The notes: a model not told the origin generated them from the sequence alone. A DNA stretch of 758 nt from Escherichia coli (GCF_003334305.1 NZ_QOWS01000070.1); one strand, 5' to 3'. Counted from the stretch's first letter, positions 1 to 758 are shown. Numbers and translations: made by a program.

Positions 1-758
1 ATCCCGACGGGTGTGATACGGACGGACGACGAGCGGACCCACCACTACCACTACGACAGCCAGCACCGCCTGGTGTTCCACACGCGGATACAGCATGGCG
101 AGCCACTGGTCGAGAGCCGCTACCTCTACGACCCGCTGGGACGGCGAATGGCGAAACGGGTATGGCGGCGGGAGCGTGACCTGACGGGGTGGATGTCGCT
201 GTCGCGTAAACCGGAGGAGACATGGTACGGCTGGGACGGCGACAGGCTGACGACGGTACAGACCGACACCACGCGTATCCAGACGGTATACCAGCCGGGG
301 AGCTTCACGCCGCTCATCCGGGTCGAGACAGAGAACGGCGAGCGGGAGAAAGCGCAGCGCCGCAGCCTGGCGGAGAAGTTACAGCAGGAAGGGAGCGAAG
401 ACGGTCACGGTGTGGTGTTCCCGGCTGAACTGGTGGGGCTGCTGGACAGGCTGGAGGGGGAAATCCGGGCAAACTGCGTGAGCAGTGAAAGCCGCCAGTG
501 GCTTGCGCAGTGCGGGCTGACGGTGGAGCGGCTGGCGGCACAGATAGAGCCGGTTTATTTGCCTGAGCGAAAAATACATCTTTATCACTGTGACCACCGG
601 GGCCTGCCGCTGGCGCTTATCAGTGAAGACGGCAATACGGCGTGGAGCGCGGAATATGATGAATGGGGCAACCAGCTTAATGAGGAGAACCCGCATCACC
701 TGCACCAGCCGTACCGGCTGCCGGGGCAGCAGTATGATAAGGAGTCGGGGCTGTACTA
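1..758 (+). CDS. Rhs-family polymorphic toxin protein, conserved core (YD-repeat) region; internal fragment, partial at both ends (RhsA-D-like; paralogue cannot be assigned from this window)
   Basis: Seen in sequence: frame +1 is open across all 252 complete codons with no stop. The translation contains repeated YD-type motifs ([29 protein letters not shown]) and the characteristic end-of-core block [31 protein letters not shown] followed by [18 protein letters not shown]. From memory this closely matches E. coli RhsA/B/C core sequence just upstream of the core/toxin junction; no database search was possible. Codon usage is strongly GC3-biased (ctg, ccg, cgg, ggc), consistent with a real reading frame. 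The ORF track missed it only because the fragment has no in-window start codon. Confidence 0.93.
46..75 (+). repeat. YD-repeat unit (protein-level) within Rhs core: [10 protein letters not shown]
   Basis: Translated frame +1; matches the Y-x-YD-x-x-x-R-L pattern of Rhs/YD repeats. Confidence 0.6.
121..159 (+). repeat. YD-repeat unit (protein-level): [13 protein letters not shown]
   Basis: Translated frame +1; a near-canonical YD repeat (Y-x-YD-x-x-G-R) as found in Rhs, teneurin and TcC-type proteins. Confidence 0.7.
223..255 (+). repeat. Degenerate YD-like repeat unit (protein-level): [11 protein letters not shown]
   Basis: Translated frame +1; a W-D-G-D-R-L variant of the YD/GR-L repeat pattern, which is commonly degenerate within Rhs cores. 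Confidence 0.5.
583..672 (+). other. Conserved Rhs end-of-core motif block: [30 protein letters not shown]
   Basis: Translated frame +1; the Y-H-x-D-H-x-G-x-P ... W ... YD-x-W-G pattern is the hallmark conserved block near the C-terminal end of Rhs/YD-repeat shells. Confidence 0.8.
706..758 (+). repeat. Final YD-repeat of the core (truncated by window end): [18 protein letters not shown]
   Basis: Translated frame +1; the R-x-P-G-Q-x-YD-x-E-x-G-L-x-Y pattern, which in Rhs proteins immediately precedes the RYYDP...DPxGL core/toxin junction. The window ends inside this unit. Confidence 0.75.

Follow-up and report, generated by a model that had tools for sequence, protein, structure and literature searches.

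Rhs cocoons are major toxin containers of bacteria, whose loading onto the T6SS and opening in the target cell are open problems. RhsA of P. protegens (7Q97) and Rhs of S. bongori (8QJB-D) are described examples of the PAAR-Rhs architecture, with a cocoon, an N-plug and a C-terminal autoprotease plug. In Tse5 of P. aeruginosa, the plug was assigned to residues 1092-1168 (PMC10684867), while residues 1256-1267 of Tse15 from A. baumannii were published as a "solvent exposed exterior loop". Published lumen volumes of Rhs cocoons are about 25,000-35,000 cubic angstroms. T6SS Rhs surfaces were described in a structural study as 'very smooth and lack protrusions and structural decorations', and a preprint on Rhs cores reported that loop length differs most notably at the S. 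bongori loop 1312-1315. Cocoons with YD shells are also formed by TcB/TcC (BC) and teneurins, in which the shell carries extra domains. Here we describe a predicted helical segment in the shell of an E. coli Rhs protein, at a hairpin which is closed by a short turn in several of the solved structures.

The analysed stretch of E. coli DNA (758 nt, referred to here as the window) is open over its whole length in frame 1 of the + strand and encodes an internal part of a PAAR-Rhs toxin (Table 1), with protein residue numbers being window residue numbers plus 970. It showed 100% identity to genes annotated as 'RHS element core protein' in many complete E. coli genomes, and 3725 of the 5426 genomes carried window-related copies (median, 3 per genome). 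The matching CDS in E. coli O103:H2 12009 (L001:5091-9338) is directly preceded by tssB, tssC, Hcp and VgrG, and is thus linked to T6SS spike genes. K-12 RhsA is found without a T6SS spike-gene context. At the 3' side of the rhs gene in O103:H2 12009, a small YdcD-family gene overlaps the rhs stop codon, and ISAs1 transposase pseudogenes or IS remnants were observed beyond it.

The encoded protein matched the NCBIfam model NF041261 (RHS_core) with 2667.7 bits, at a cut-off of 2000, with aa 1-1266 aligned to positions 1-1261 of the 1261 in the profile, which covers the insertion region too. YD repeats (TIGR01643, E=2.8e-49) were detected in 6 stretches of the 1415-aa protein. A predicted autocleavage motif of the form PxxxxDPxGL (PIQVIDPMGL, aa 1257-1266) closes the Rhs-associated core domain, and the 149-aa AT-rich toxin tip that comes after aa 1266 carries PF22322. 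The region matched by TIGR03696, to which the Tse5 plug residues correspond in the alignment mapping, is assigned as the C-terminal plug and aspartyl autoprotease region. The protein passed every membership test that was run at the sequence level and is a textbook case of an Rhs core from E. coli. The GC content is about 0.65 in the core and drops to 0.28-0.43 further on, where the toxin tip and the YdcD-family gene lie (L001:8700-9900). Such a break between core and tip is the classic composition pattern of Rhs genes.

The first-pass annotation had singled out nt 325-582 (aa 1079-1164) as a charged segment that interrupts the YD-repeat array. We confirmed that these nucleotides encode 86 aa, from ETENGE to ERKIHL, and that YHCDH begins at nt 583, although the translation given at the time missed the final L. 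The segment had been described as lacking YD periodicity and as being rich in E, R, K, Q, L and A, and it turned out to be the compositional extreme of the core. When compared with the remaining core (taken as aa 300-1266), Y+D accounted for 3 of its 86 residues vs 134 of 881 (Fisher p=0.0017), E+R+K+Q+L+A for 57% vs 37% (p=0.0003), and G+Y+D+T for 14% vs 34% (p=9e-5). Of all 86-aa stretches in the core, the one beginning at aa 1075 has the highest ERKQLA content and the one beginning at aa 1068 has the lowest Y+D content; the two stretches lie on the segment. No YD-like motif ([YFW][DN]xx[GN]) was found between aa 1013 and the next one at aa 1189, and the segment is not a member of the YDxxGRL-type hairpin repeats, which have a period of about 21 residues.

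A recent foreign origin of the segment was rejected, as its GC content matches the core value. On the DNA level, two other candidates within the window were rejected. The only Rfam match, to the family mir-1207 (a eukaryotic miRNA) at nt 507-641 (+), reached 28 bits while the gathering score is 90, and was considered a chance match in GC-rich coding DNA. A 108-aa ORF at nt 379-705 on the - strand, together with other ORFs, was considered the usual by-product of GC-rich coding DNA, and no gene support for minus-strand ORFs was found in the window. The search for repeats in the window gave no meaningful ones, only short matches at chance level.

We mapped the strands that flank the segment by phmmer and profile searches against all PDB chains. 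Only about 3 residues connect these strands in P. protegens RhsA (7Q97) and in S. bongori Rhs (8QJB-D, 8qjc/8qjd). Roughly 7-16 residues lie between the equivalent strands of the Advenella VgrG-Rhs (8QJA), about 30 in Tse5 (8CP6, chain-B 983-1014) and about 40 in Tse15 (8UXT, 1243-1284). Since the joints at the aligned strands are short in the solved cores, the E. coli protein bears an insertion of about 80 residues at the tip of a hairpin, as the first-pass annotation had suspected. Aligned to solved Rhs, the true insertion covers approximately nt 328-573 (window aa 110-191), which is slightly narrower than nt 325-582, and nt 568-591 already encode the resuming beta-strand KIHLYHCD.

The strand PLIRVETE is the last shell strand ahead of the insertion. 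It aligned to strands ending at 1177 in 7q97, 957 in 8qjd, 982 in 8cp6_B and 1242 in 8uxt, with P1074 being invariant and L1075 and R1077 being conserved at least 86-100%. The downstream strand aligned from 1180 in 7q97, 961 in 8qjd, 1015 in 8cp6_B and 1283 in 8uxt. The S. bongori loop 1312-1315 corresponds to the E. coli insertion site. In Tse15, ...FVPLLQ (ending at 1242) and FTFYHCDQ (from about 1285) aligned with the E. coli flanking strands and mark the same site, while the comparison of the Tse15 stretch with the E. coli insertion demonstrated no sequence homology, leaving position alone in common.

Two cysteines were observed in this region. Cys1167 of YHCDH (nt 589-591) was invariant across all the insertion-bearing sequences aligned; it has an equivalent in Tse15 and the Advenella Rhs, and none in Tse5 (FHTDH) or in P. 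protegens RhsA (YHNDL). C1141, in the motif 'QCGL', is fixed among close relatives.

Table 1. Features of the window and of the predicted helical segment. Positions are nucleotides of the window; aa are residues of the full-length protein; AF2, AlphaFold2.
Feature	Position	Strand	Remarks
Window part of the gene	1..758	+	Internal aa 971-1222 of the 1415-aa PAAR-Rhs toxin, WP_000509150.1, RHS element core protein
Upstream beta-strand of the host hairpin, PLIRVETE	310..333	+	aa 1074-1081; AF2 strand, model 955-962
Helix a1, NGEREKA	334..354	+	aa 1082-1088; AF2; gapped in ~70% of distant homologues
Helix a2, LAEKLQQE	367..390	+	aa 1093-1100; AF2; L1093 at least 90% conserved across the family
Variable acidic loop	391..423	+	aa 1101-1111; lowest confidence of the AF2 models
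Helix a3, the longest	424..468	+	aa 1112-1126; AF2
Helix a4, SESRQWLAQ	484..510	+	aa 1132-1140; AF2; W1137 and L1138 conserved
Helix a5, VERLAA	523..540	+	aa 1145-1150; AF2
Return linker, QIEPVYLPE	541..567	+	aa 1151-1159; AF2 coil; length varies among homologues
Downstream beta-strand of the host hairpin, RKIHLYHC	568..591	+	aa 1160-1167; AF2 strand, model 1041-1048; runs into YHCDHRGLP
Pfam PF03527, 'RHS protein'	574..684	+	aa 1162-1198; E=8.7e-17
Start of the Rhs repeat-associated core, TIGR03696	655..758	+	aa 1189-1266; extends past the window end

An AlphaFold2 model of the core (aa 120-1300, from a 38-sequence alignment) showed a cocoon with a mean pLDDT of 80.7 and a pTM of 0.74. Tse5 was its best structural match in Foldseek (TM 0.75/0.81), with other Rhs structures next (7q97, E=1.7e-64), and the predicted fold is that of the beta-cocoon of T6SS Rhs toxins. 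The modelled shell consists of beta-hairpins except for aa 1082-1150, which are predicted to form five helices with a block pLDDT of 78-87. When the segment was modelled in isolation with its two flanking strands (44-sequence alignment), the same five helices were predicted with a mean pLDDT of 89.7, which points to an autonomously folding unit. Thus, the earlier view of the segment as helix-prone, and unlike the beta-hairpin repeats, agrees with both models.

The profile search aligned 'PELLQLRQAFAAEG' of Tse5 with helix a2. The conserved residues of helix a3 are L1118, L1121 and L1125, together with E1122 (at least 90%). The acidic loop reached a pLDDT of 57 in the core model and 78 in the isolated one. 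Its SEDGH part is an indel that is present only in a subset of homologues, with a gap frequency of 0.86-0.90 in distant ones, and 83-aa and 88-aa forms were observed. A Foldseek search of the isolated subdomain against the PDB revealed no similar fold (best E=0.92, TM 0.25), and among the best 50 matches in AFDB50 only Rhs proteins were found. The E. coli and Shigella Rhs models in the AlphaFold DB superposed at TM 0.8-0.93, including RhsD (P16919) at 0.83. No Pfam domain was detected across aa 1079-1161. Outside the segment, another helix was modelled at aa 255-270, followed by a low-confidence linker at aa 272-295 ahead of the shell; by analogy to other Rhs, aa 255-295 may represent the post-PAAR/anchor-helix and N-terminal cleavage region.

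An exhaustive phmmer search of 1.84 billion representatives yielded 2870 relatives of the window. Among the best 150 of these, the site is spanned by 73 and the insertion is kept in 73/73; named relative clusters include Salmonella enterica, Serratia silvae and Citrobacter farmeri. We also scanned one genome per species with a pattern that needs the Cys of YHCDH, so the scan is biased to the insertion-bearing clade and gives no fraction of Rhs proteins without the insertion. The loci found in this way belong to Enterobacterales (Escherichia, Pseudocitrobacter, Citrobacter, Trabulsiella, Yokenella, Buttiauxella, Rahnella, Hafnia, Serratia, Erwinia and others), to Comamonadaceae (Acidovorax, Paracidovorax, Diaphorobacter, Comamonas, Delftia and Lampropedia), and elsewhere to Ignatzschineria and some MAGs, with insertions of 74-117 aa. 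A word-indexed homologue search was less helpful: with the 86-aa segment alone it returned short E. coli, Shigella and Klebsiella fragments only, which are uninformative on distribution, and with the full protein it returned 120 near-identical E. coli sequences, which are of no use for alignment depth. The first-pass annotation had pointed to a comparable segment in E. coli RhsA-C and had taken it as a conserved lineage feature rather than a new one. Both points held, since K-12 RhsA has the insertion at the same place, and the lineage proved far wider than E. coli.

All 69 non-redundant versions (74-117 aa) retain the segment. Across them, the hydrophobic residues L1093, L1118, L1121, L1125, V/L1130, W1137, L1138, L1143, L1148 and L1152 are conserved, and the helix-like hydrophobic pattern, together with E1122, persists down to about 35% identity. 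Helix a1 and the acidic SEDGH loop, on the other hand, are gained or lost among versions. The segment is less conserved than its flanks, at which the median pairwise dN/dS of the Enterobacteriaceae copies was 0.15, vs 0.30 for the insertion. One sequence (L026) was anomalous in the flank, probably because of a local frameshift or misalignment, and the medians were unchanged. The ratios indicate that the insertion is under purifying selection, about twofold relaxed relative to the flanks; given its lower conservation, some of the segment may be dispensable. From the sequences compared, we consider the insertion to be an old, maintained part of the core in a broad clade, neither recent nor specific to E. 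coli.

Some individual records deserve mention. A 117-aa insertion in Trabulsiella odontotermitis (L031, NZ_JNGH01000101.1, ~6001-6744) has 'VDNLEAGLRRGELSEHNRQWLVQSGLTVEQLV' duplicated in tandem and in frame; the duplication is 34 aa long and covers helices a3-a5. In the representative proteins P0075 and P0113, early YD repeats (around aa 400-450 of the core) are fused straight to the insertion start, with one of the junctions reading '...KARHRSLAEVLQ', and these are either large internal deletions ending at the insertion boundary or assembly chimeras. Rhs fragments with 66-100% identity to the E. coli window were seen in records of Bacillota, Collinsella, Sporosarcina, Nanosynbacter and Flavobacterium MAGs and in Jeotgalibacillus, and a Delftia-like rhs copy was seen within a 'Nostoc' assembly. 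In all these out-of-place records (L003, L006, L018, L033, L044, L053 and L078), the rhs fragments are most likely the result of contamination or mis-binning.

Taken together, our preferred reading, to which we assign a probability of roughly 60%, is that of a helical subdomain of about 80 residues at the last ordinary shell hairpin, which is probably a decoration of the outer surface with a brace or docking role. The subdomain would be compact and alpha-helical, with five helices and one variable acidic loop, and would form an insertion in the tip of the final regular beta-hairpin that the shell of this T6SS PAAR-Rhs toxin has before its C-terminal plug/autoprotease domain, which lies one hairpin further downstream. 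The PLIRVE and KIHLYHCDH strands are expected to pair as in other Rhs cocoons, with the helices packing on their own hydrophobic core between the paired strands. It would be an ancient component of the GC-rich core that has been inherited vertically, present in a large Rhs clade (Enterobacterales, Comamonadaceae and others) and absent or much shorter in solved Rhs. Most likely it projects from the outer face of the cocoon, and is neither a plug nor a replacement of YD repeats.

The analysis shows the insertion, its predicted helical fold, its conservation under purifying selection and the lack of a match to a known fold. The exterior position and the role are what we infer, and for the position the closest analogy is Tse15, in which the published exterior loop falls within 1243-1284, the stretch that occupies the E. 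coli insertion site. The first-pass annotation had left it between decorating and plugging the shell. The Tse15 loop favours the former, and the latter is disfavoured since the plug-equivalent domain starts only at aa 1189, 25 residues past the segment end, so that the segment is not part of the C-terminal plug. Indels are tolerated in the segment, as are a variable, charged loop and the duplication of a34-aa block, typical of surface elements, which also argues for an external decoration. An interior location, at which the segment would line the lumen, touch the encapsulated toxin or add to the C-terminal plug, is quite unlikely. It would agree with the sequence adjacency to the inward-spiralling part that closes the shell, and inner-wall helices do occur elsewhere, as with the N-terminal anchor helix of P. 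protegens RhsA. However, besides the points above, space argues against it: the toxins encoded at 45 loci with the insertion have an ordinary length (median 138 aa, maximum 193 aa), with no reduction in insertion-bearing proteins, and a lumen of the published volume could hardly accommodate a further folded unit of about 9 kDa. The PDB copy searched contained no experimentally solved Rhs with the insertion.

We regard as very improbable that the segment is a neutral, largely disordered spacer, a loop grown by drift; its variable length, its conservation below that of the flanks and the several working Rhs proteins that are entirely without it would be expected from such a spacer, but five defined helices were predicted with high confidence, the heptad-like hydrophobic pattern is held to about 35% identity, the segment is in 69/69 family members, and a dN/dS of 0.30 is well below 1. 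It is hardly conceivable that there is no insertion and that degenerate YD repeats still make beta-hairpins here, as only the place of the segment in a YD-repeat protein speaks for it, whereas the segment lacks YD-like motifs, is extreme in composition, is predicted to be helical and is gapped against solved Rhs cores. Regular hairpins that align gap-free with canonical repeats were accordingly not what we found. The segment could also be an external functional module, which either docks a second Rhs molecule, a part of the T6SS or a factor of the target cell, or acts as a plug-side latch in cocoon opening and toxin release. A folded domain under purifying selection and retained across distant proteobacteria, with one polar residue (E1122) conserved at 90% or more, and one hairpin away from the C-terminal plug, fits such a module, and toxin exit from the cocoon is an open question in the Rhs field. 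We nevertheless hold it to be unlikely, as no result points to any partner, the conserved positions mostly form a hydrophobic core and no surface patch, the fold matches no known binding domain, and P. protegens RhsA, S. bongori Rhs and RhsP work without the subdomain, so the general mechanism does without it. The version in which a clade-specific external latch or docking module by the C-terminal plug binds a T6SS or target-cell partner, or controls cocoon opening, is improbable too; if true, it would provide a genetic handle on Rhs toxin release.

For the preferred reading, a surface subdomain, the role would probably be either structural, as a brace of the seam at which the strip of the shell bends inward into the C-terminal plug, or that of a docking surface for a partner. 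A putative brace or surface module at this inward-turning seam is the most economical role. Since Rhs effectors without the module are fully functional, it stands outside the general mechanism, and if it is only a brace or decoration, its description is a useful annotation. In Rhs alignments, the segment should be masked as an insertion and not treated as degenerate repeats.

All solved T6SS Rhs structures are without the subdomain or have only a stump of one, while the founding E. coli Rhs and a wide clade are predicted to bear a conserved folded module at the most length-variable loop of the shell. Given such a module in the E. coli-type clade, the solved Rhs set would not be fully representative. 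A helical insertion of the E. coli type was not described in the papers on Tse5, RhsA, Rhs1, Tse15, the S. bongori and Advenella Rhs or the P. gergoviae protein, and, in line with the first-pass annotation, we found no described function for it in the searchable literature. The E. coli-type clade therein appears to be an undiscussed exception to the smoothness of Rhs surfaces. The segment is already present in public sequence, in the family model and in AlphaFold models, so the object is known; the subdomain is undescribed, and its description is an annotation-level addition.

Compared with known systems, the window protein belongs to the same family as E. coli RhsA-D (NF041261; K-12 RhsA b3593, RhsD P16919), which have the same segment and show no structural difference from it, the description of the subdomain being the only addition. 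Tse5 (8CP6) is the closest solved structure, with 31% identity and TM 0.75/0.81, and also bears an insertion here, about 30 aa long, the start of which aligned to E. coli helix a2 in the profile search. However, this insertion is under half the E. coli length and is without the a3-a5 part, and FHTDH replaces YHCDH. Tse15 (8UXT/8UY4) has the same cocoon fold (Foldseek E=6e-63) and an extra stretch of about 40 aa at the same hairpin, which is half the E. coli length, partly disordered and without detectable sequence similarity to the E. coli helices; it also has an N-terminal helical clade domain in place of PAAR. The decorations of TcB/TcC and teneurins (beta-propeller, NHL and FN-plug) are located elsewhere and have an unrelated fold, and the overall similarity of these proteins to the query model is low (TM 0.2-0.5). 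P. protegens RhsA and S. bongori Rhs share the PAAR-Rhs architecture with the E. coli protein but have a tight turn of about 3 residues where the latter has about 80, and these structures, without the subdomain, underlie the statement that T6SS Rhs surfaces are smooth.
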